Assembly (NCBI GenBank): GCA_036405895.1
Contig: DASWWS010000001.1
Coordinates: 310,468 to 363,743 of the forward strand
DNA from: Minisyncoccota bacterium
GTDB taxonomy: Bacteria > Patescibacteriota > Minisyncoccia > Phycocordibacterales > UBA9973
Length of the DNA: 53,276 nucleotides
Direction of reading: 5' to 3'
In this document: positions 3,168 to 53,276 of the stretch, piece by piece
Layout of the letters: every line of letters begins with the position of its first letter
Position numbering within the stretch: the first letter of the stretch is position 1
The notes under the pieces: model-generated
Databases searched by the model: none
Told to the model about the DNA's origin: nothing
What the model saw: only the letters and a program-made list of their open reading frames with translations
Translations under genes and position numbers: made by a program

Positions 3168-3707
3168 CTACTTCAGCTTCATCAATTTCTTGAACACTTC
3201 ATAGGTTGCATACGCGTCCGCAAAAGCGCTGTGTGCGCGCTTGTTTTCTATTTCAAATTTCTCGCACAGTGCTCGAAGAGAAAGTTTTCCAATATCATCA
3301 TTGGTGTGCAGGATGCCAAATGCGAGCGCGATAGTGTCGAGCTTATGGTAGTGCATTTTGTTTTCAGTCCCGGTTTTCTTGAATGCAGCGTTTACAAAGC
3401 CGTAGTCAAACGTGAGGTTGTGGGCGACAAAAATCGCCCCTTCTGTTTTCTCGGCGAATGTTTTCATCGCATCCTCAAGGGTTACCGCAAAAAGCCAGTC
3501 AGCCGGGTCGTAGCCGTTTACGCGCAATGCTGCAGGCTCGGCATTTTCAATGTTTTGCGGTTGTATCTTTATGTCCAACTCGTCCACCACTGTCAGCACA
3601 TCGTCTTTCATGCGCGCGAGCACAAGCCCGAGCTCGATGATCTCGTGCTTGTCATGGTCGAGCCCCGTGGTTTCGACGTCTATAAAAGCGAGCGGTTGTT
3701 GTAGCAT
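3168..3707 (-). CDS. DEDDh 3'-5' exonuclease (DnaQ/epsilon-like)
   Basis: Exo I motif FIDVETTGLD, Exo II motif VAHNLTFDYGF and Exo III motif HSAFADAYAT. Confidence 0.8.
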   Translation of the reverse strand: MLQQPLAFIDVETTGLDHDKHEIIELGLVLARMKDDVLTVVDELDIKIQPQNIENAEPAALRVNGYDPADWLFAVTLEDAMKTFAEKTEGAIFVAHNLTFDYGFVNAAFKKTGTENKMHYHKLDTIALAFGILHTNDDIGKLSLRALCEKFEIENKRAHSAFADAYATYEVFKKLMKLK

Positions 3708-3708
3708 G

Positions 3709-4674
3709 TTATTTTAGGTAGCGATTGATATTTGCCTGGTGCTGCTGATACGTAGAGGCATAGTGTATTCCGCCTTGGGAATCATGTAAATAGTATAAAT
3801 ACGGAGAACTCTGCGGAGCAATTGCCGCTTTGATTGATTCGAGCCCGGGATTGTTAATCGGCCCCGGCGGAAGACCTTTGTATTTGTAAGTGTTGTATGG
3901 GGAATCCATGGCGAGATCCTTCAATGTCAATTCGCTTGATTCTTTATTCAATAAAAAGAGAAACGGTGCATCAACCTGAAGCGGCATATCGATTGAAATG
4001 CGCTTCCATAAAATCCCTGAAATGATTGCACGGTCTTCAGGGCCGTTTGCTTCTTTTTCAATAATGGATGCCATAGTTATGGTGTCCTCCAGGCTTCGCC
4101 CGCTTTTTTCAATATCCTCTTCCAGCGGTGTGATCTTCTTATCAAAATTGCGCTTAAGCGTTGTCACCACTAAGTCTGGCGCCAAGGACGGGAAGAATCC
4201 GTACGTGTCGGGGAACAAATACCCTTGGTCATCTTTCGCAAGCTCTAAAAAGAGCTCCTTGTCGAAATTCGGAAATGTCGCAGATAAACGGTCTGCCATA
4301 TTGATAGTGGTAAACCCTTCAGGAAATGTAATGCGCTCGCGGTCTATGCCAAACTGCTTGCCCGAAATGCGCATCGCAACTCCAAGCGCTGTCATCGGCT
4401 CAGAAAAATAGTACTCCCCTTCGCTGATGCTTTTTTCATTTCCCAAGGAAAGCATGAATATTTCAAACACGCGCGGGGATCGGATAACATTGTCAGCGAG
4501 CAATTCGTTGGAAACAGAAAAGAGAGTCTGCCCCGGCTCAATTGTCAAATGATACGGGATTGGAAAATTGTCCGGTGCTGCAAAAAAACGGTTGTACCCT
4601 ACAGCAAAGAGGCTTGCGCCGATAAGCAGCGTGAGAAAAGTTTTAACGATAAATCCGCTTTGATGCTTCTGCAT
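3709..4674 (-). CDS. mltG: Endolytic murein transglycosylase (YceG-like)
   Basis: N-terminal TM helix. YceG signatures GYLFPDTYGF, MASIIEKEA and LQVDAP, with NTYKYKGLPPGPINNPG. Confidence 0.85.
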   Translation of the reverse strand: MQKHQSGFIVKTFLTLLIGASLFAVGYNRFFAAPDNFPIPYHLTIEPGQTLFSVSNELLADNVIRSPRVFEIFMLSLGNEKSISEGEYYFSEPMTALGVAMRISGKQFGIDRERITFPEGFTTINMADRLSATFPNFDKELFLELAKDDQGYLFPDTYGFFPSLAPDLVVTTLKRNFDKKITPLEEDIEKSGRSLEDTITMASIIEKEANGPEDRAIISGILWKRISIDMPLQVDAPFLFLLNKESSELTLKDLAMDSPYNTYKYKGLPPGPINNPGLESIKAAIAPQSSPYLYYLHDSQGGIHYASTYQQHQANINRYLK

Positions 4675-16169: not shown

Positions 16170-17387
16170 CTAGAGTTCATTAATTGCATCGTTTGCCGCA
16201 TCCTCGGCGTCATTTGCCAAGTCTTCTGCATCATCATAGTCCTCATCGTCATAGGCGTCTTCTGCTTCGTCGAGCAAGTCTTCAGCTTCTTCAAGCAGTT
16301 CTTCTGCATCATCAGTATCTTTATTACTGTCTGCGATTTCGTCTTCCGCATCTTCTATTGCATCTTTTGCGTCTTCAATGGCATCTTTTGCCTTCTCCTT
16401 GTCTTTCTTTGCATCGCCTCCGATTGCGTCAATGGCGTCGTCTACTGTATCAGATGCTTTCTTTACCAAATCTTCTGCCTCATCAGTATCTCCATCATCA
16501 AGCGCGTCTTCTGCTTTCTCTAAGAGTTCTTCAGCTTTTTCCAACAGCTCTTCAGATTCTTCAATGTCTTCTCCATCATCGTCCGCTTCCTCAACGTCTT
16601 TCCACGCTTCGTCTATTTCATCAAATACGCGGTCAATGTCGTCTTCGATTTCATCTTCCTGTGTTTCTCCGCCCGCATCACTGAATGCATCTTCGGCATT
16701 GTCGTGCGCCTTGGCAGCCGCTACGAGTGCGTCCGCAAAGTCTTCGTCAAAATAGGCATCTACCGCTTCTGCAAGGTCTTCTCGGGCGTCTTCAAGGTTT
16801 ATCTTTGCGTCTTCAACTGCTTCCCCTGCTTCAGCATCCTCGATTTCGTCTTCCGCATCATTAATCATATCGATTGCTTCCTTGATAGCCTCTTTTGCCT
16901 TCTTTGCTTCAGAAGAATTAGCGGTGTTGGCAGCTTTTGCCGCAGCAAGTTGTGAAGTAAGGGTTGCGATCTGTGCCTTATACGCCTCAATCGCTGCATC
17001 ATTGTTATTCGGAGCCGGTGTTGATGGAGTTGCCGGGGCTGGAGTCGTTACCCCTGCTGCAAGCTTTGCGTATGCTGCACGAGAAAGGGTTCCAAATGTT
17101 CCCACTGCAGGAAAAAGGCCGTTTGCAGCCTGCCAGCTTGCAACCGCTTCTTTTGTCTTTTGCCCATACTGTGTCGTTTCGCTTCCTGGGGCGCCGCCGC
17201 CTGTTGCAGCTATCACAAACCCTTCGCTATTAAGATACTTTTGAAGACAACGAACGTCTTCTCCTGTAACGCCGAGATCAAGCACGCGGGTGAAGGTGCA
17301 GATTGGTGCAGCAGAGGCAGGTGTTGTAAAAGTAAACAGTGCGAGCGTAAAGAATGCGTCAAAGAACAGTTGCGTGGAAATTTTCAT
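16170..17387 (-). CDS. Secreted peptidoglycan-binding-domain protein with a long hyper-acidic helical repeat region
   Basis: Signal peptide MKISTQLFFDAFFTLALFTFTTPASAA (ATG at 17387; the track ORF starts at 17444). PG_binding_1-like segment (GVTGEDVRCLQKYLNSEGF...YGQKTKEAVASWQAANGL). Ala/Pro linker, then about 230 aa of D/E/A-rich repeats (ELLEKAEELLEKAEDALDD..., ELLEEAEDLLDEAEDAYDD...). Confidence 0.7.
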   Translation of the reverse strand: MKISTQLFFDAFFTLALFTFTTPASAAPICTFTRVLDLGVTGEDVRCLQKYLNSEGFVIAATGGGAPGSETTQYGQKTKEAVASWQAANGLFPAVGTFGTLSRAAYAKLAAGVTTPAPATPSTPAPNNNDAAIEAYKAQIATLTSQLAAAKAANTANSSEAKKAKEAIKEAIDMINDAEDEIEDAEAGEAVEDAKINLEDAREDLAEAVDAYFDEDFADALVAAAKAHDNAEDAFSDAGGETQEDEIEDDIDRVFDEIDEAWKDVEEADDDGEDIEESEELLEKAEELLEKAEDALDDGDTDEAEDLVKKASDTVDDAIDAIGGDAKKDKEKAKDAIEDAKDAIEDAEDEIADSNKDTDDAEELLEEAEDLLDEAEDAYDDEDYDDAEDLANDAEDAANDAINEL

Positions 17388-30140: not shown

Positions 30141-30260
30141 ATCATGAGAGTTATTTAGTACAGTATCTTTGAAATACCTGGCGCTGTCAAAGCTTTATCT
30201 TTATTGACTTTTATAAAAAATAAGGCAATATCAAGAAAAACTTCATTTAAATTACTGAAC

Positions 30261-31001: not shown

Positions 31002-31015
31002 AATTCTTCCTTATA

Positions 31016-31044
31016 TTGACTTTTATAGATTTATGTGCTATTAT
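31016..31044 (+). promoter_or_regulatory. Sigma-70-type promoter with an extended -10
   Basis: TTGACT (31016-31021), a 17-nt spacer ending in TGc, then TATTAT (31039-31044). The 15-mer tattgacttttata is repeated at 30202-30215. Confidence 0.55.
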
Positions 31045-31069: not shown

Positions 31070-31255
31070 ATGAAAGAAATAGAAATAACTATCGCACACA
31101 GCATACAAACTGTCGCATCAGTAATCCATTTTAGCGAAAAAGGATTCACCGATTTAGCTCGCGACCTGTCCAATGCCAATCTGAAACGTTTCGGCGCAGA
31201 AGTATTGAGCATTGAGATGTTGCCTGATGTTGTTCTTGTCGGACAAGAAAACTAA
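31070..31255 (+). CDS. Small hypothetical protein (61 aa)
   Basis: ATG at 31070 (MKEIEITIAH...) lies downstream of the promoter. The track start at 31016 is the -35 TTG. Confidence 0.4.
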   Translation: MKEIEITIAHSIQTVASVIHFSEKGFTDLARDLSNANLKRFGAEVLSIEMLPDVVLVGQEN

Positions 31256-31355
31256 AAGTGTACTTACTAAGGCTTCCCTATTATTTAGAGGAAGTCTTTT
31301 TTATCTGTGACCCTTTGTAGTGAGTTTTGGAATAGCTTATTATATAGAAATAGAA

Positions 31356-31895
31356 TTAGTTACTAAAAATTTTCTTTAAAGTGTAATCACTATAACCTGC
31401 ACCGAGTGTTTCAATAACTTCAAACCCATGTTTTCTAAAAAATCTTATTCTGTCTGATAACGGCTCACCCATTCTACTCTCTTGTAAGTTACCCACAATG
31501 TATTTCACATTATTTTCTCTAGCGATTTCATCGACAATTTTCATTAATTGTCCACCTATTCCCCGTCTACGATATTTCTCACTAACGCGAATATCCATAA
31601 TATCTAAGACAAGAAATGTATTATTTTGATAACTAGCTGAAGAAATCCAAATTGAAAGATTGTTATTAAATTTATCTGAAATAATTATATCCCTGTAGCC
31701 CAAATAAGTATCGACAGAAATGTCAAAAAGAGGCATCTTCTTAAAAAAATAATTGTCATCTTCTTGAGTGCATCGGAAATGAATATTAGAAAGGTATACA
31801 TTTGCTTCCATTGTTATTTTTCTGGAGAAAATATTAAAATACTTACTCTGAAATGACATAGGGTATCGTTTTTTTATAAAGATATCTTCTAACAT
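31356..31895 (-). CDS. GNAT-family N-acetyltransferase
   Basis: Acetyl-CoA motif A: VSEKYRRRGIGGQLMKIVDEIAREN. C-terminal FFRKHGFEV. AT-rich. Confidence 0.7.
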   Translation of the reverse strand: MLEDIFIKKRYPMSFQSKYFNIFSRKITMEANVYLSNIHFRCTQEDDNYFFKKMPLFDISVDTYLGYRDIIISDKFNNNLSIWISSASYQNNTFLVLDIMDIRVSEKYRRRGIGGQLMKIVDEIARENNVKYIVGNLQESRMGEPLSDRIRFFRKHGFEVIETLGAGYSDYTLKKIFSN

Positions 31896-31901
31896 ACATT
31901 A

Positions 31902-32687
31902 TTAAAAACGATCTGACTGAGAATATTTTTGAGCAAAAAATTTACCCTTATCAGTCAAAGATATAGTTTTACCATTACTTATTTTTATTAAGTTATTTGT
32001 ATCAGCAAAAACTAAAACGTCTTTATCAATCTCAAAATCATAGTTTCTAGAATAAGAAAGTGACATTGCTGATTCTACTCTTATTTTTCCTTCATGAATA
32101 TATATTGAATCTAAAATCTGAGTAAATTTACTAAAAATAGAACTGCTGATAAAATTTTTAAATTCTTCTTCCCATAAAATCTCAGGATTCTCATTTCCTG
32201 CTTTTTTATTCTGTTTAGCCTTTTCTGTTTTTTCTTTTATTAAGTTTGTTTGCTGCTTAATTAACTTTTCCTCTTCCTTTACTTTTTTTGTAGTCTCCTG
32301 TATCTCAATTACTTTTAATGCGATTTGATTTTTAAGGCTCTTTCTATAAAACTCTCTCGTAATATATGGAGAGATCCAAAAAAGTATTAAAGTTGATATA
32401 AAAGGAAAAATCCAAAAATGAAGCCAGTAGCTTACCTCATTAAGCTTTAAGAATAGTTCGTTAGATAAATACTCTATTCTCAGCAATCCAAATTTTTCAA
32501 ACACCTTTTCCTGATCAACGAAAAAAGCGGCGTATATTATTTTCCAGTTAATAACACACCAAGAAATTAAAAAGTATCCATAAAACGGAGAAGTTATTCT
32601 ATCTTTAAGTGCCATGTCGGCTGATACTACAATCTCATTAGTACCACCAAAAAAGTCTTTTAAGGTATCTGCGAATTTTGAAAACAT
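31902..32687 (-). CDS. Hypothetical membrane protein with a Lys/Glu coiled-coil and a C-terminal globular domain
   Basis: Two TM helices (FYGYFLISWCVINWKIIYAAFFV, WLHFWIFPFISTLILFWISPYI). K/E-rich helix (IQETTKKVKEEEKLIKQQTNLIKEKTEKAKQNKK). There is a 6-nt gap to the GNAT gene. Very AT-rich. Confidence 0.6.
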   Translation of the reverse strand: MFSKFADTLKDFFGGTNEIVVSADMALKDRITSPFYGYFLISWCVINWKIIYAAFFVDQEKVFEKFGLLRIEYLSNELFLKLNEVSYWLHFWIFPFISTLILFWISPYITREFYRKSLKNQIALKVIEIQETTKKVKEEEKLIKQQTNLIKEKTEKAKQNKKAGNENPEILWEEEFKNFISSSIFSKFTQILDSIYIHEGKIRVESAMSLSYSRNYDFEIDKDVLVFADTNNLIKISNGKTISLTDKGKFFAQKYSQSDRF

Positions 32688-32745
32688 GATACTTTTAGTT
32701 TATGTCAATTTTTTATAAAAGGCTATGTTTTTAGGGAATTTAGAG

Positions 32746-32751
32746 TAGAAT
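32746..32751 (+). promoter_or_regulatory. -10 box (TAGAAT) placed 6 nt upstream of the ATG of the 89-aa gene; leaderless-type start
   Basis: Sequence reads tagaat tctatt ATG. Confidence 0.4.
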
Positions 32752-32757
32752 TCTATT

Positions 32758-33027
32758 ATGGTATATCTAGTGACTTATGATTTAAATAAGCTCGGTAAAG
32801 ATTATACAAACCTTTACGCCGCCCTAAAGCGCTATGACTACATTAAAGACGTAGGCCTTGATTCGGTGTGGTTTGTCTCAACTACATGGACTGCTGCCCA
32901 GATTTATGAACATTTACGCCATTATATAGATGTGAATGATAGATTGGTTATAACTAAAATGAATAAAGGTGAACATCAAGGTTGGATGCACAAAGATATA
33001 TGGATATGGATAAATAGTAGAATTTAA
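32758..33027 (+). CDS. Small protein with a Cas2/VapD-like ferredoxin-fold pattern (predicted)
   Basis: 89 aa. VYLVTYDL (b1, terminal Asp), NLYAALKRY (a1), DSVWFV (b2/3), AAQIYEHLRHYI (a2), DRLVITKM (b4). The next gene starts 2 nt after its stop. Confidence 0.55.
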   Translation: MVYLVTYDLNKLGKDYTNLYAALKRYDYIKDVGLDSVWFVSTTWTAAQIYEHLRHYIDVNDRLVITKMNKGEHQGWMHKDIWIWINSRI

Positions 33028-33029
33028 TT

Positions 33030-33968
33030 ATGAAGAAAGATTTTCCTGAATACTATCCATTAACAAAATTGCAAAAAGAAAAACTATGGGATAGTGCTAT
33101 TTTTGTTTTTGACGCTAGTCTACTCTTAGACCTTTATTGCTATTCAGAAAATACTCGTAATGATTTTTTAGATATTTTAGAAAAAATGAGCTCTCAAATC
33201 TGGCTACCCCATCAATTTGCTTATGAGTATCAAAAGAACCGGTTAAAAATAATTCAACAACAAAAAAGAGCTTATGCAGATATTCGACAAAAGTTACAAT
33301 CTAATTTTGAATTTACATTAAAAAATATCAAAGATAGACACCCTTTTTTAAATATAGATAATATCATTAAAAAAATTAAGGCGGGTATTGATGATGCAAT
33401 TAAGGAAATAAACGACGCCGAAAAAAAACATCCTAACTGGTCTTCAAACGACACAGTGAGACGTCGACTTGATATAATTTTTAAAGATAAAATTGGAGAA
33501 CCTTGTAAGGATATAGAAGAGATGGAGCGACAAGGAGCTAAACGTAATTCTAGAGAAGTTCCACCAGGATTTGAGGACCAGAAAAAAGACCGTAATAAAT
33601 ATGGCGATTGGTTTGGATGGCATCAAATTATGGAGATGGCAGAAAAAAATAAGAAGTCTATAGTCCTTGTTACTAGTGAAAAAAAGAGAGATTGGTGGCT
33701 TAAAATTGAAGATGAAATAATTGAACCTCTCCCAGAATTACGGAAAGAAATTTCTATAAGGGGTGCACAATTTCATATGTATGACATGGAGACTTTTTTA
33801 CAGGCAGCTAAGGCAAAAAAATCTACTTTGAAAGAGATTCAGGAAATAAATAAGACTGTAAAAAATCTTGGTACTAGTGATACTGAAACAGATTCACAAT
33901 TAAATGATCATGCCATTACGCAAATGGGAATAGGGTCTATTGAAGCCGGTGAACAAACAGAAACATAA
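33030..33968 (+). CDS. PIN-like domain (DUF4935-type) predicted nuclease
   Basis: FVFDASLLLDLYCYS, IWLPHQFAYEYQKNR, VPPGFEDQKKDRNKYGDWFGWHQIMEMA and IVLVTSEKKRDWW match the PIN-like signature blocks as I recall them. Confidence 0.65.
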   Translation: MKKDFPEYYPLTKLQKEKLWDSAIFVFDASLLLDLYCYSENTRNDFLDILEKMSSQIWLPHQFAYEYQKNRLKIIQQQKRAYADIRQKLQSNFEFTLKNIKDRHPFLNIDNIIKKIKAGIDDAIKEINDAEKKHPNWSSNDTVRRRLDIIFKDKIGEPCKDIEEMERQGAKRNSREVPPGFEDQKKDRNKYGDWFGWHQIMEMAEKNKKSIVLVTSEKKRDWWLKIEDEIIEPLPELRKEISIRGAQFHMYDMETFLQAAKAKKSTLKEIQEINKTVKNLGTSDTETDSQLNDHAITQMGIGSIEAGEQTET

Positions 33969-34055
33969 AAACGATCCTTGTGGAGTGTTTTTATATATGG
34001 CCTCATGGGGATGTTAACCCTATACTCACTCTTTGGAAACCCAAAACATGATGGA

Positions 34056-34160
34056 ATCGGTCACGAGTTACTAAGTGTTCTCCTGTGCAAGGCACAGTGC
34101 GAGCACTAAGTACTCTCGACCCCGGCTCGGTTGCCTGTCGGCATACCTGCGCCTTTCGCT
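34056..34160 (-). repeat. GC-rich conserved element, copy A (downstream of tRNA-Glu, same orientation as the tRNA)
   Basis: 34103-34160 is the reverse complement of 35084-35141 with 2 mismatches in 58. 34056-34078 is the exact reverse complement of 35161-35183. The segments between differ but each can form a small hairpin. Confidence 0.85.
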
Positions 34161-34192
34161 TCCCCGCCGCGAGCAAAGCAGTTTGCTCGCTT

Positions 34193-34244
34193 GGGGTCAC
34201 ATGTAAAAAACGCCTCTTGCGAAGCGTTTTTTACATGTGACCCC
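34193..34244 (-). terminator. Perfect 21-bp hairpin with a 10-nt loop that incorporates the tRNA-Glu 3' acceptor strand
   Basis: ggggtcacatgtaaaaaacgc / gcgttttttacatgtgacccc. The inner aaaaaacgc...gcgtttttt part is terminator-like in both directions. Confidence 0.7.
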
Positions 34245-34309
34245 ACGGGGAATCGAACCCCGATTAACGGCTTGAAAAGCCGGCGTCCTAACCGTTAGAC
34301 GATGGGGCC
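34238..34309 (-). tRNA. tRNA-Glu (anticodon UUC)
   Basis: The reverse complement GGCCCCATCGTCTAACGGTTAGGACGCCGGCTTTTCAAGCCGTTAATCGGGGTTCGATTCCCCGTGGGGTCA folds as a cloverleaf. It has a 7-bp acceptor stem and a GGGG-TTCGATT-CCCC T arm. The anticodon loop is TTTTCAA. CCA is not encoded. Confidence 0.85.
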
Positions 34310-34876: not shown

Positions 34877-34925
34877 ACAAATTGCGGTTTTGGCGAAAAT
34901 CGGTATGATATCTACACAGCCGTTT

Positions 34926-34999
34926 GCGCGGTTAGCTCATATGGTTAGAGCGCTACATTGACATTGTAGAGGTGACAGGTTCGATCCCTGTATCGCGCA
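34926..34999 (+). tRNA. tRNA-Val (anticodon GAC)
   Basis: GCGCGGTTAGCTCATATGGTTAGAGCGCTACATTGACATTGTAGAGGTGACAGGTTCGATCCCTGTATCGCGCA. Canonical arms, with anticodon loop TTGACAT. CC follows the discriminator base. Confidence 0.9.
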
Positions 35000-35015
35000 C
35001 CCGTTTAAAAAAGTA

Positions 35016-35038
35016 GCCCACATAGGTGGGTCTTTTTT
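35016..35038 (+). terminator. Terminator after tRNA-Val
   Basis: gcccac atag gtgggt followed by cttttttat. Confidence 0.6.
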
Positions 35039-35083
35039 ATTGGGTGCGCGATAAGAAAATGAACTGCTTCACTTTCGTCAGGG

Positions 35084-35183
35084 AGCGAAAGGCGTAGGTA
35101 TGCCGACAGGCTACCGAGCCGGGGTCGAGAGTACTTAGTGCGCGCAACCTTCAGGTGAGCACACTTAGTAACTCGTGACCGAT
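35084..35183 (+). repeat. GC-rich conserved element, copy B (downstream of tRNA-Val, same orientation as the tRNA)
   Basis: See copy A. A third cacttagtaactcg box lies at 35237-35250 and is followed by the hairpin gcgattg agca caatcgc. Confidence 0.85.
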
Positions 35184-50374: not shown

Positions 50375-53276
50375 GGCGTTGCTTCTGTTACCGGTTCAGA
50401 AGCTGGCGCTTCTGGTTCTGGAGTTGGTTCAGGCTCCGGTTGAGGTTCTGGAGTTGGGTCTGGTGTTGGTTCCGGTTCGGGTGTTGGTTCTTCAGAAGGA
50501 CCGTCCTCCTGTGGAGTTGGTTCCGGTTCTGGTTCAGGGTCTGGTTGTGGCTCTGGAGTTGGATCGGGGGTGTTGGTGGTGTTGTTGTATGAGCCGTTTG
50601 CACTATCAAGAAGCTCCTGCAGCTGGCTTTCGGTCACACATGTCTGCCCCACACAAAGCTTGTCGGTATTCACCCGCCCAATATTCGCTATCCCCTCTGC
50701 AATGCCTTCCAAGAATGCTGCGACTTTTGCCGCCATCGAGCCATCGTCTTCGAATTCTGGAAGGGCTTGGACTTTGATATCGAGATCTTTCACTCCCGCT
50801 ACAAGCAACGGTATTATGTCTGTATAGCTCACCCCCATGTAGCCCTGCGCATTTTCTGTTACCGCCTCTGGGAGCACGCGCCTTACATCTTGCGCTATCA
50901 AGAACGAGCGACTCACGGATAGGGGATCCGTTAAATATCTCGATGTTCCGGCTCGCAGAGAACTTATCTTACCTAAAGCATCAGTAAACGGCTGGAATGC
51001 CTCCATATCTTTCAGCCGTTCATCCGAAGAGGCGGTCCATGAAGTGCCTCCAGCCGCCAAATACACGCCACCCGATCCGTTTGCTCGAATATTTAATTGA
51101 GTGCTTGGTCCGGTGACACCTCCCATGAACATGTCAGCATTTGCCCCACTTCGCTTCCATGATTGCAAGTTTCCTGCTGCATCGGCTTCTATGGTTAAGC
51201 GAACGTCCGGACTGGTAGTCCCAATACCGACGTTGCCGTTTTCTAAGATAGTCACCCCTTCATTCGCATACTGCCCGGTGTCTGCAGAAATATGAATCGG
51301 GGCTCCTGTAATATTACTGATAGCAAATGCACCATCGACAGAGTTTGTCAGAAGTTGCCCCACTCCTCCGTTGAGCCCAATATTCGCATTACCTTGAAGG
51401 TTGGTGAACTGGAGATACGCATTGTCCGTACCCCCTGTTGAGCGGATGCGAACAGCAAGCGATGCGGCGTGCTCAATGTTGAGCTTGTATCCTGAAGTGG
51501 TTGCAGTACCAATACCCACTTCTCCGTTATTGGCAAGGAATATGCCGTTTGTCACCCCAGAAGTACCAAAGAGCATTTCACTTCCCAATACTCTCAAAGA
51601 GGTGTACTGAGCAGTGTTTCGGTTATAAGAAAGAATATCCGATGATGTTCCCCCCGTTCCCCCGTTCACCGGATTGAATTCAAGGCCGTTTGCCCCTCCA
51701 TTTGATACGACTAATTTTGCGAGAGGACTCGCTGTTCCAATACCAACATACCCACTCCCTGCCAAAATAGAAAGTCGCTCCACTTCATGGGCTGTGTTTT
51801 CCGCAGTTCCTCCGAGAGTAAAGAATCCCATTCGAGCATTTAACACTCCTGGTGTTGACGCAGTGTTAATGCTTTTTATTGCATTACTGTAGTAGAGCGT
51901 ACTTCCGGAGACAAATCCTCCAATATTGAGAGTACCAGTCACATCTCCTGCTACATTACCCTCATTTGTAATAAGTGCTGCTCCAGCAACATGCAATTTG
52001 GTATAAGGATTTGTTGTGCCAATACCGACTCTACCGTCTCCTCGAACCATAAACAACGGATTATTATTTCCCGTAACAACGTTAAGCGCGTAGTGAGTAC
52101 TGTCGAGTGCTGCTTGAATCCCCAACCCGTTCCCGCTTGCATGCGGGTTGTAAATATATTGGCCGTAGGCAGCAGCATTCGTTTCAACATAGAGACGTAT
52201 TGTTGATGGATTCGTTGTCCCGATACCGACGTTCCCATTCGTCTCAATACGCATGCGCTCTGCAATTGATCCTGCAGTCGGCTTTGTAAAGAATTTCAAG
52301 AGACCAGAATCAGCATTAACACTATCTGTCGTTGCTGAAATGATATTCGTCAATGTACCACCATTATGAAATGTGATTTGCCCTATAGTGCCATTGGCAA
52401 CACCTGTTGTTGTTGCAAGCTCCAAAGATCCGCGATTAGTGCTGGATCCTTGTATGGTAAGAGTAGTAGAGACGTTGCCATTTATGTTCGGAGTTGTTGT
52501 CCCAATACCCACATTTCCCTCACTGGTAACACGCATGCGCTCAAGAGGGTCTGAATTTGCTCGGGTAAGAATTGCAAAATAACCGGCTACATTGTTTAGA
52601 GTTGAATTTTCTTTTCTTCCCACTATTGTGGCAAAGTTAGTATACGAGGTACTGACTGCATTGTATTTGCCACCCAATCCCAGTGAGCCTCCCAAGTCTG
52701 CCGCATACGCATCAGAAGTAAAAATGTTTACGTTGGGCCTTCCACCATCGGTCACTAGCTTGCTCGCACCCACTACCTCTAAACTACTATTTGGTGTTGC
52801 TGTCCCAATACCAACGTTGCCTCCATTTGCCTGCAAGATCAAAGAAGATACAGCATTGTTAAAGTATGAATAGATATACGATGTTCCAGTAACCGTATCG
52901 TACCGAGTGGATAAGAAATTTTCATTGTCCTTTCCAATATCCAAACGAACGGTTCCTGTCGTACCGATGATTCGTGTATCGAGAATAGGCCGCGTTGCAG
53001 AGCCAATCATCAACTGATTAGCTGCAGTATTAGTTGCACTGCCGCCAAGTGCAATCGAGTTTGAGAATCCGCCGGTTGAAGTGGACTTCCCGATGAGGAT
53101 GGAGAAGTCGTCAGGGTCCGCAGTGTTGTCTACACTATCTCCACCCCCGGCTCCTTGTCCAATGAAGATTGAATTGCTGGCAGATACCGCGGTGTTTCCT
53201 GCATTATAGCCAATGAAGTTTGAGTAAGAGGCATCGGTTGCAAAGAGGCCAGCATAGGTCCCAATAAAGTTTGAAT
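50371..53276 (-). CDS. Second giant tail-fibre-like repeat protein (paralogue); N-terminus lies beyond the window edge
   Basis: The track gives 880 aa from TTG at 53013, but the frame is open with no stop up to base 53276 (my translation: SNFIGTYAGLFATDASYSNFIGYNAGNTAVSASNSIFIGQGAGG...). There are seven GNVGIGT-type modules and SSDERLKDM... is S74-like. It carries the same conserved extension and Pro/Glu tail as the 1593-aa gene. Its TGA overlaps the downstream ATG (ATGA at 50371-50374). Confidence 0.85.
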   Translation of the reverse strand, partial: SNFIGTYAGLFATDASYSNFIGYNAGNTAVSASNSIFIGQGAGGGDSVDNTADPDDFSILIGKSTSTGGFSNSIALGGSATNTAANQLMIGSATRPILDTRIIGTTGTVRLDIGKDNENFLSTRYDTVTGTSYIYSYFNNAVSSLILQANGGNVGIGTATPNSSLEVVGASKLVTDGGRPNVNIFTSDAYAADLGGSLGLGGKYNAVSTSYTNFATIVGRKENSTLNNVAGYFAILTRANSDPLERMRVTSEGNVGIGTTTPNINGNVSTTLTIQGSSTNRGSLELATTTGVANGTIGQITFHNGGTLTNIISATTDSVNADSGLLKFFTKPTAGSIAERMRIETNGNVGIGTTNPSTIRLYVETNAAAYGQYIYNPHASGNGLGIQAALDSTHYALNVVTGNNNPLFMVRGDGRVGIGTTNPYTKLHVAGAALITNEGNVAGDVTGTLNIGGFVSGSTLYYSNAIKSINTASTPGVLNARMGFFTLGGTAENTAHEVERLSILAGSGYVGIGTASPLAKLVVSNGGANGLEFNPVNGGTGGTSSDILSYNRNTAQYTSLRVLGSEMLFGTSGVTNGIFLANNGEVGIGTATTSGYKLNIEHAASLAVRIRSTGGTDNAYLQFTNLQGNANIGLNGGVGQLLTNSVDGAFAISNITGAPIHISADTGQYANEGVTILENGNVGIGTTSPDVRLTIEADAAGNLQSWKRSGANADMFMGGVTGPSTQLNIRANGSGGVYLAAGGTSWTASSDERLKDMEAFQPFTDALGKISSLRAGTSRYLTDPLSVSRSFLIAQDVRRVLPEAVTENAQGYMGVSYTDIIPLLVAGVKDLDIKVQALPEFEDDGSMAAKVAAFLEGIAEGIANIGRVNTDKLCVGQTCVTESQLQELLDSANGSYNNTTNTPDPTPEPQPDPEPEPEPTPQEDGPSEEPTPEPEPTPDPTPEPQPEPEPTPEPEAPASEPVTEATP
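50374..50571 (-). repeat. Low-complexity Pro/Glu-coding tandem repeat (C-terminal tail of the upstream giant protein)
   Basis: TPDPTPEPQPDPEPEPEPTPQEDGPSEEPTPEPEPTPDPTPEPQPEPEPTPEPE. It contains ggttcttcagaaggaccgtcctcct at 50486-50510. Confidence 0.9.

Follow-up and report, generated by a model that had tools for sequence, protein, structure and literature searches.

To our knowledge, Cas2 is universal in CRISPR systems and outside them is known mainly through the VapD toxins. The subject of this report is a pair of adjacent genes, encoding an 89-amino-acid (aa) Cas2-like protein and a 312-aa nuclease of the PIN_8 family, in a stretch of 53,276 nucleotides (nt) from a Minisyncoccota bacterium (GenBank assembly GCA_036405895.1, contig DASWWS010000001.1, positions 310,468 to 363,743), designated below as the window. 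Judged from sequence comparisons, this mobile two-gene operon is most likely an anti-phage or anti-plasmid defence cassette.

Precedents are known both for Cas2 relatives outside CRISPR, namely VapD and BPSL1038, and for two-gene nuclease modules of the defence or toxin-antitoxin type. The VapD nucleases use a catalytic Asp and Ser, about half of the VapD homologues have no fixed partner, and VapW is an antitoxin with the Cas2/VapD fold (PMC11980593). BPSL1038 of Burkholderia pseudomallei (PDB 7VXR) is a solo Cas2-like DNase with a D(X20)SST motif, encoded in a genome without CRISPR (PMC10491678). On the nuclease side, the PIN_8 family was credited with 4-5 conserved acidic residues, grouped structurally with VapC, and marked "function unknown", and genes of the related DUF4935 family were reported to be mostly monocistronic (PMC5499597). 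In the canonical Menshen system a ParB-DUF262 protein, NsnA, is the presumed sensor (PMC12065111). A Cas2-family protein paired with PIN_8 was not described in the literature searched, in PADLOC-DB v2, or in the PIN and VapD surveys, and neither protein of the pair has a non-Cas PADLOC match; a first-pass annotation of the window, made from the sequence letters, had likewise named no described system pairing the two modules.

The stop codon of the first gene (TAA, 33025-33027) is separated by 2 nt from the ATG of the second at position 33030. The reading frames, their lengths, and the gap were found where the first-pass annotation had put them, and every peptide block that it quoted is present in the translations. 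These are real genes and not chance open reading frames (ORFs), as follows from the PIN_8 match of the second (E = 2.8e-55) together with the 3131 protein clusters that make up the Cas2-like family of the first.

A Cas2-Superfamily Protein outside CRISPR

The first homologue search returned 25 relatives of the 89-aa protein with 54-76% identity, each of about 89 aa and none of them annotated. Across these 26 sequences 25 positions are invariant, among them D8, D31, D35-S36, W38, D58, D61, G75-W76, W82, and W84. The profile built from the 89-aa protein and its 25 closest homologues was searched against 1.84 billion representative proteins and gave 3131 clusters (50% identity) with E ≤ 1e-3, of which 542 had E ≤ 1e-10, almost all annotated in public records as "hypothetical protein". 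Among 139 family representatives D8 is conserved in 86%, S36 in 89%, D58 in 89%, and D61 in 99%.

The AlphaFold model of the 89-aa protein, built on the 25-homologue alignment (predicted local distance difference test score, pLDDT, 90.7; predicted template modelling score, pTM, 0.83), has the layout β1-α1-β2-β3-α2-β4 followed by a C-terminal helix. The leading Foldseek matches in the PDB were all Cas2 (4qr0, 2i0x, 1zpw, 3exc, 5h1o, 8d3l, and 4es1), with a probability of about 1.0 and TM values of 0.5-0.63 (0.54-0.63 for the first four), and H. influenzae VapD stood at rank 19; the fold search of BFVD returned uncharacterised viral proteins and nothing else. In the sequence comparison the 89-aa protein covers nearly the whole Pfam Cas2 profile (PF09827) at a sub-threshold score (E = 0.035, 14.7 bits versus a cut-off of 23.8), while 26 of the 139 family representatives match it at E ≤ 0.01 (best 1.6e-8), no other family recurs, and the PADLOC matches of the representatives are to Cas2 models only. 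The Asp closing strand 1, which the first-pass annotation had assigned to the metal-binding position of Cas2, is D8, and the N-terminal YDL aligns with the YDI of Cas2 in the broad profile A2, in a match that is itself non-significant (E = 0.27). According to the predicted fold and the Pfam matches within the family, the 89-aa protein is assigned to the Cas2 superfamily but is not a CRISPR Cas2, so that the Cas2/VapD-like fold proposed for it in the first reading was borne out.

The protein shares with Cas2 the fold and the N-terminal Y-D-[IL] with Asp at the end of strand 1, but it differs in its score below the Pfam cut-off, in an extra C-terminal Trp-rich helix, in its own set of invariant residues (S36, D58, D61, G75-W76, W82, and W84), and in a partner that is a PIN nuclease and not Cas1. 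There is no CRISPR-like array in the window, and a Pfam scan confined to ±10 kb on the source contigs, and so not covering the remainder of the window for cas1, matched no cas gene; within this scope the absence of cas1, array, and other cas genes claimed at first holds. The view of the locus as a decayed CRISPR adaptation module, which only the Cas2 homology supports, would agree neither with these absences, nor with a distinct and well-conserved clade having invariant residues of its own, nor with the annotated recurrent neighbours in the 96 loci described below, which are not Cas proteins, and its probability is practically negligible.

VapD offers a parallel, being also a non-CRISPR branch of the Cas2 superfamily that is often stand-alone and located on mobile elements, and the Asp and Ser of VapD would correspond by topology to D8 and S36 of the 89-aa family; the differences are the lower rank of VapD in the fold search and the lack of any VapD profile or sequence match seen for the 89-aa protein. 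BPSL1038 has the same topology with an extra helix and an active-site motif of Asp and Ser/Thr, but it has no described partner nuclease, is outside the top 50 Foldseek matches of the 89-aa protein, and was not matched by either profile at E ≤ 10. Profile A1 gave no match to the PDB at E ≤ 10 and profile A2 gave non-significant Cas2 matches only (E = 0.27 and 1.1), and a sequence link to BPSL1038 or to any solved structure was rejected on these profiles. The Asp/Ser motifs and the fold shared with VapD and BPSL1038 support the place of the 89-aa protein in the Cas2 superfamily and suggest that it is probably catalytically competent.

The PIN_8 Nuclease

The match of the 312-aa protein to PIN_8 (PF18476) reaches 188.1 bits versus a cut-off of 26.1 and extends over profile positions 1-227 of 227, whereas its match to PIN_12 (formerly DUF4935) amounts to 32.0 bits, exactly at the cut-off of that family. 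Thus, from the initial description of a PIN-like nuclease of DUF4935 type, the PIN nuclease is retained and the DUF4935 assignment is replaced by PIN_8. The domain occupies residues 24-237 and is followed by a helix (264-294) and a disordered acidic tail (282-312). In 17 aligned homologues D28, E66, D193, and D221 are invariant and are the probable occupants of the four catalytic positions; R172, P178-P179-G180, D183, W197, and K219 are invariant as well. A long helical insert is present in the model (pLDDT 84.6), for which the PIN protein PAE2754 gave the best PDB matches, at E-values that are weak because of the inserts in the 312-aa protein. PADLOC contains no model for this protein.

The paired PIN_8 proteins are short (273-331 aa), while most solo homologues have 343-510 aa with extra and varied C-terminal domains. 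The short size of the paired form fits a partner function supplied as a separate protein, and it is compatible with the Cas2-like protein providing the sensing or regulatory function that other PIN_8 proteins carry fused.

Conservation and Mobility of the Pair

In the first survey a jackhmmer scan of genome and metagenome collections gave 96 non-redundant loci with relatives of the small gene, and a PIN_8 gene was downstream in only two of them, the window and locus L001, which had suggested incidental pairing. Two of the partner PIN_8 proteins had escaped the word-indexed search for homologues, and targeted look-ups of the closest homologues were added. In the completed set PIN_8 adjoins the small gene in all five members of the closest clade with enough flank: the window (gap of 2 nt), L108 (overlap of 4 nt; Cas2-like identity 75%), L001 (6 nt; 70%), the P0007 contig (2 nt; 75%), and L123 (21 nt; 74%). 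The first-pass annotation had named, among the findings that would refute its proposal, homologues of the two genes that never co-occur; the pair was present in five of the five close relatives examined, in unrelated contexts.

Apart from the pair nothing is common to the five loci, and the flanks differ in each. The L108 pair adjoins a Viral_Rep gene and a serine recombinase; the L001 pair follows a tRNA-like sequence and has as neighbours the type I restriction subunit HsdR, an SNase, and a Cas4-like PDDEXK protein; AbiEii is next to the pair on the P0007 contig. In these three loci the neighbours are thus defence or mobile-element genes, and the window copy is situated in an AT-rich islet beside a tRNA gene. 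For the four pairs of known sequence, identity amounts to 70-75% in the Cas2-like protein and to 49-71% in PIN_8; the two proteins diverged together, and the pair has moved between genomes as a unit.

The leaderless-type -10 box that was noticed at first in the window has equivalents in the three other loci with DNA: in all four a -10-like hexamer (TAGAAT, TAGAAT, TATAAT, and TACAAT) precedes the first ATG by 6-7 nt, and there is no Shine-Dalgarno sequence. The TAGAAT box of the window, 6 nt before the ATG, is absent from the list of a generic promoter scan because it has no good -35. Before the PIN_8 gene neither a conserved promoter nor a Shine-Dalgarno sequence was found in the four loci. 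A second TAGAAT box, 6 nt before the PIN_8 ATG of the window and lying within the codons for the C-terminal NSRI and stop of the first gene, was considered as a separate leaderless promoter and rejected, since it is not conserved in L108 and L001. The conservation of the box before the first gene only, in four of four loci, supports one leaderless bicistronic transcript with translational coupling. Thus the pair is probably one mobile, leaderless operon, its transcription start being a prediction from the sequence.

The same observations bear on the view that the two genes are autonomous single-gene cargo functions, uncoupled from each other and merely neighbours within a compact hotspot of defence or mobile-element genes. 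Both families are widespread on their own, and the Cas2-like gene abuts diverse neighbours closely, for example at 1-7 nt behind hicA-hicB, so that tight spacing is not specific for PIN_8; on the other hand, five of five closest-clade members keep exactly this pair with all flanks differing, the genes overlap or are 2-21 nt apart, and the promoter-like box is conserved before the first gene only. Uncoupled cargo is unlikely.

A classical type II toxin-antitoxin module of the VapBC kind, with PIN_8 as the toxin and the Cas2-like protein as a new kind of silencing antitoxin, would explain the order of a small gene before a nuclease of the VapC structural group (PMC5499597), the tight coupling by a 2-nt gap or 4-nt overlap, and the mobile contexts of the cassette, and VapW is a precedent for an antitoxin of the Cas2/VapD fold (PMC11980593). 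VapW, however, lost the catalytic Asp/Ser, whereas the 89-aa protein keeps D8 and S36 and has no DNA-binding antitoxin domain (no AbrB, RHH, Phd, or HTH in Pfam). The VapC toxins are compact proteins of ~130-150 aa that depend on their antitoxin, whereas the PIN_8 protein has 312 aa with long helical inserts and belongs to a family whose genes are mostly solo, which argues that no antidote is needed; the related DUF4935 genes are mostly monocistronic as well. Moreover, conservation is higher in the small protein than in the nuclease, whereas antitoxins usually show the opposite, and members of this small-protein family are also encoded ahead of ATPases, cyclases, and membrane effectors, which would not be expected of a dedicated PIN antitoxin. 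On this evidence the toxin-antitoxin module is unlikely, and the VapB-VapC analogy is the weaker of the two readings that the first-pass annotation had offered.

Relatives in the part of the tree around the window come mainly from Patescibacteria genomes. In a sister clade a conserved gene of 184-227 aa converges on the 3' end of the Cas2-like gene, from a 4-nt overlap to a 9-nt gap (L006, 6283-6966, minus strand; L043, 6267-6944, minus strand; L044, 6278-6832, minus strand); its product is weakly PIN-like (Pfam E = 0.0056; PDB VapC protein E = 0.42).

Cas2-Like Genes on Phages, on Plasmids, and ahead of Other Defence Genes

The tblastn search for Cas2-like relatives resulted in 27 phage and 71 plasmid records, and the labels given by depositors to the phage homologues range from "hypothetical" to "SinR" and "CRISPR-associated endoribonuclease". 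In Enterococcus phage phiFL2B (L127) the gene, gp05 at 3495-3773, has the same direction as the CI repressor, ImmA, and integrase genes, that is, the direction of lysogeny. In the Klebsiella P2-like phage ST512-KPC3phi13.6 (L125) the Cas2-like gene (3995-4264) adjoins the portal gene within the gpA-gpQ interval, the anti-phage hotspot of P2 validated by Rousset et al. (PMC9122126).

Solo copies are found on ColRNAI plasmids of 4863 bp from Klebsiella, Enterobacter, Citrobacter, and E. coli, which also carry an "ATP-binding protein" gene followed by a gene for 145 aa; one such homologue with 41% identity is located at 2135-2422 on the minus strand of L124 (NZ_KU302807.1). Other solo examples come from Bradyrhizobium, at 1.2 kb from an island of the type III cyclic oligonucleotide-based antiphage signalling system (CBASS), from a Mesorhizobium prophage, and from Rhizobium in an ordinary chromosomal setting. 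That the gene stands alone on multicopy plasmids speaks against a Cas2-like protein that is strongly toxic in itself. This bears on a further alternative, in which the Cas2-like protein is a VapD-type toxin restrained by PIN_8 or by an unseen RNA. Such a toxin would agree with the Cas2/VapD fold and the retained catalytic Asp and Ser, and VapD homologues are toxic and induce the SOS response; but the family is carried solo by multicopy ColE1 plasmids and many chromosomes and so is not strongly toxic alone, and Cas2 ranks above VapD in both fold and sequence searches. There is also no adjacent VapX, VapY (SH3-like), or VapW-like small gene, because the promoter box abuts the ATG with no ORF between them, and in distinction from the VapD systems the 89-aa gene is first in its operon, the large nuclease comes after it, and PIN_8 is the sole conserved neighbour. 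A 312-aa PIN nuclease with apparently active residues would be an odd antitoxin, and a VapD-type toxin is accordingly very unlikely.

In eight loci of the survey an NsnB-like ATPase (AAA_15 + DUF3696) is located 1-17 nt downstream of the Cas2-like gene, with PADLOC NsnB E-values down to 1e-94. NsnC is directly third in six of the seven complete loci (L032, L069, L082, L091, L093, and L095; PADLOC E from 1e-26 to 1e-88), as for example in L091 with the Cas2-like gene at 350-616, NsnB at 631-1830, and NsnC at 1834-2763; L022 has NsnB without NsnC, and L035 is cut off by the contig end. No protein of DUF262 type (NsnA) was found nearby in six of the seven complete loci. The triad contigs are mostly of Bacteroidales or Prevotella type, the genes just past the triad are, by eye, ordinary cellular genes in several loci, and the triads are situated on deep, diverged branches of the Cas2-like tree. 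DUF262 served as the seed of the published Menshen survey, in which Cas2 is nowhere mentioned (PMC12065111), and because of this seeding it would have missed such an arrangement. No description of a Cas2-like gene replacing NsnA was found in the literature or PADLOC-DB v2, and the triad looks like an undescribed Menshen variant with the Cas2-like protein in the place of NsnA. The likeness of the window pair to Menshen consists in a small first gene followed by nuclease effectors, in the distant relatives of the 89-aa gene that precede NsnB and NsnC, and in the PIN-like domain of NsnC. The differences are that there is no NsnB or NsnC in the window, neither window protein matches the PADLOC Nsn models, NsnA is a ParB-DUF262 and not a Cas2-like protein, and NsnC has a catalytically dead PIN-like domain (PMC12065111), in contrast to PIN_8 with its retained acidic residues.

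Other genes downstream on the same strand include CBASS cyclases, namely SMODS/AGS-C, 6 nt away in L071, and a DncV-like CD-NTase, 122 nt away in L031, as well as DUF4917 (PADLOC candidate PDC-S21), DUF6119, and PycTM-like membrane proteins. Upstream on the same strand there are S24 LexA-like repressors (9 loci), M78/ImmA peptidases (10 loci), a caspase, an SDH-type protease, and complete hicAB modules, with integrases and ArdC nearby. In the two hicAB loci (L098, 2739-3772; L104, 3974-4999) hicA and hicB are followed by the Cas2-like gene after 1-7 nt; HicB as an antitoxin of the Cas2-like gene was considered and rejected, because hicA, intact or apparently frameshifted (L104), precedes hicB and the module is therefore a complete hicAB followed by the Cas2-like gene. 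Where the recurrent neighbour clusters of the 96 loci carry an annotation, it is as repressors, integrases, or defence genes. The Cas2-like family thus behaves like mobile-element cargo, located alongside prophage repressors or heading defence operons, and this is the classic position of exclusion and defence genes.

Proposed Function and Its Weighing

Both proteins of the pair look catalytically competent, given the conservation of D8 and S36 (a VapD-like Asp and Ser) in the family of the first and the four invariant acidic residues of PIN_8. In the proposed mechanism the operon would be transcribed from the -10 box directly before the first ATG into a leaderless mRNA, and the PIN_8 gene would be translated by coupling to the first gene. 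The Cas2-like protein would homodimerise, as Cas2 and VapD do, would bind or nick nucleic acid via Asp8/Ser36, and may contact PIN_8 as its sensing or controlling partner, while PIN_8 would act as a metal-dependent nuclease that cuts invader or host RNA or DNA, with protection of the host as the putative phenotype. A two-nuclease defence cassette of this form, in which a Cas2-like dimer senses or controls and PIN_8 executes, is proposed tentatively, with a probability that we put somewhat short of even. In the more general sense the cassette is probably an undescribed anti-phage or addiction module.

Several observations weigh against the defence cassette. Many Cas2-like genes are solo, including those on the 4.9-kb ColE1 plasmids, PIN_8 is solo in archaeal, Bacillus-prophage, and other contexts, and since each family usually occurs without the other, each could work alone. 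The tblastn search with the four PIN_8 proteins found none in the other ~90 non-redundant Cas2-like loci, and the five pair loci form one clade, so they may represent few independent events, though their flanks differ. The idea that the partner stands in for an absent domain is weakened by one short PIN_8 protein (P0189, 318 aa) that occurs solo. Finally, no non-Cas PADLOC model exists for either protein, and the defence role is thus assigned by association alone. According to these data the pairing is real, and its range is a single small clade within a far larger Cas2-like family that for the most part lacks PIN_8.

A wider proposal is that the 89-aa protein belongs to a large, unnamed non-CRISPR Cas2 branch serving as a portable nucleic-acid sensor or adaptor for interchangeable effectors, such as PIN_8, NsnB-NsnC (where it would replace NsnA in Bacteroidales), CBASS cyclases, and others; this idea is a serious possibility that we nevertheless hold with low confidence. 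Cas2-like proteins of such a branch could be the pool from which CRISPR adaptation recruited Cas2. Following the example of Cas1-Cas2, a dimer of such a protein might connect a pair of PIN_8 nucleases on a duplex.

The AT-Rich Islet and Surrounding Features

The features of the locus are collected in Table 1. The markedly AT-rich patch reported in the first reading is real, with a GC content of 0.30-0.32 across 31-34 kb versus about 0.48 either side, and a finer profile narrows it to ~31.2-34.0 kb. The islet contains the Cas2-like/PIN_8 pair and a divergent GNAT/membrane-protein pair, and on the source contigs it is surrounded by housekeeping genes (FolD, YkuD, guanylate kinase, TsaD, and a tRNA synthetase). 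The 3' end of the tRNA-Glu gene points toward the islet; a direct repeat of this end bounding the islet as an integration scar was not found. Rfam detected only tRNAs in the window, and a simple scan revealed no terminator 3' of the PIN_8 gene.

Table 1: Features of the Cas2-like/PIN_8 locus in window coordinates.
Feature	Position	Strand	Evidence
Cas2-superfamily gene, 89 aa (non-CRISPR)	32758-33027	+	ORF, model, Foldseek, family conservation, Pfam
PIN_8 nuclease gene, 312 aa	33030-33968	+	ORF, Pfam PIN_8, homologue alignment, model
-10 box TAGAAT, candidate leaderless promoter	32746-32751	+	Read from sequence; counterparts in L108, L001, L123
AT-rich islet	about 31200-33990	n/a	Composition profiles; GC about 0.24-0.38
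tRNA-Glu, possible insertion landmark (context, not module)	34237-34309	-	ARAGORN, Rfam
tRNA-Val	34925-35002		ARAGORN/Rfam

Of the other islet genes, both on the minus strand, one encodes a GNAT acetyltransferase of 179 aa (31356-31895) and the other a 261-aa protein (31902-32687) that appears by eye to be membrane-spanning and partly coiled-coil and has no significant Pfam match. They were considered as module parts and rejected, as the pairs of L108 and L001 have no counterparts of them alongside; the two may be independent cargo.

Beyond the islet a GC-rich inverted repeat of ~108 nt with 94-96% complementarity (34056-34163 and 35081-35183) brackets a 0.9-kb segment containing the tRNA-Glu gene, a 165-aa ORF without Pfam match, and the tRNA-Val gene, the segment being otherwise without Rfam match; it could be an invertible element or one resembling a miniature inverted-repeat transposable element. 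Two near-perfect hairpins of 21-25 nt, at 34192-34245 and 34991-35053, include the 3' ends of the tRNA-Glu and tRNA-Val genes, respectively. An exact 14-nt repeat, TATTGACTTTTATA, is present at 30202-30215 and 31014-31027, at the 5' ends of two TTG-start ORFs, and an inverted relative of it lies upstream of the Cas2-like gene (32708-32726); the repeat may be a promoter motif in common. Imperfect short tandem repeats at 16185-16613 and 50410-50491 have periods of 21 and 30 nt, which are multiples of three and not CRISPR-like.

Significance

In summary, the finding points to a Cas2-like family of over 3000 sequence clusters, labelled almost throughout as "hypothetical protein". Its members inhabit the lysogeny modules of prophages, hotspots of defence genes, and small plasmids, and one of its clades is locked to a PIN nuclease. 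The presence of relatives on 4.9-kb ColE1 plasmids and in Klebsiella and Enterococcus prophages makes experiments simple to set up. If the pair is a defence system, it would represent a new two-nuclease design and provide the first functional context for PIN_8. If the pattern of a Cas2-like gene before an effector holds for NsnBC, CBASS cyclases, and others, it would suggest a reusable sensor or adaptor module, and such a module, if true, would bear on the proposal that the CRISPR adaptation genes derive from toxin-like or defence genes.

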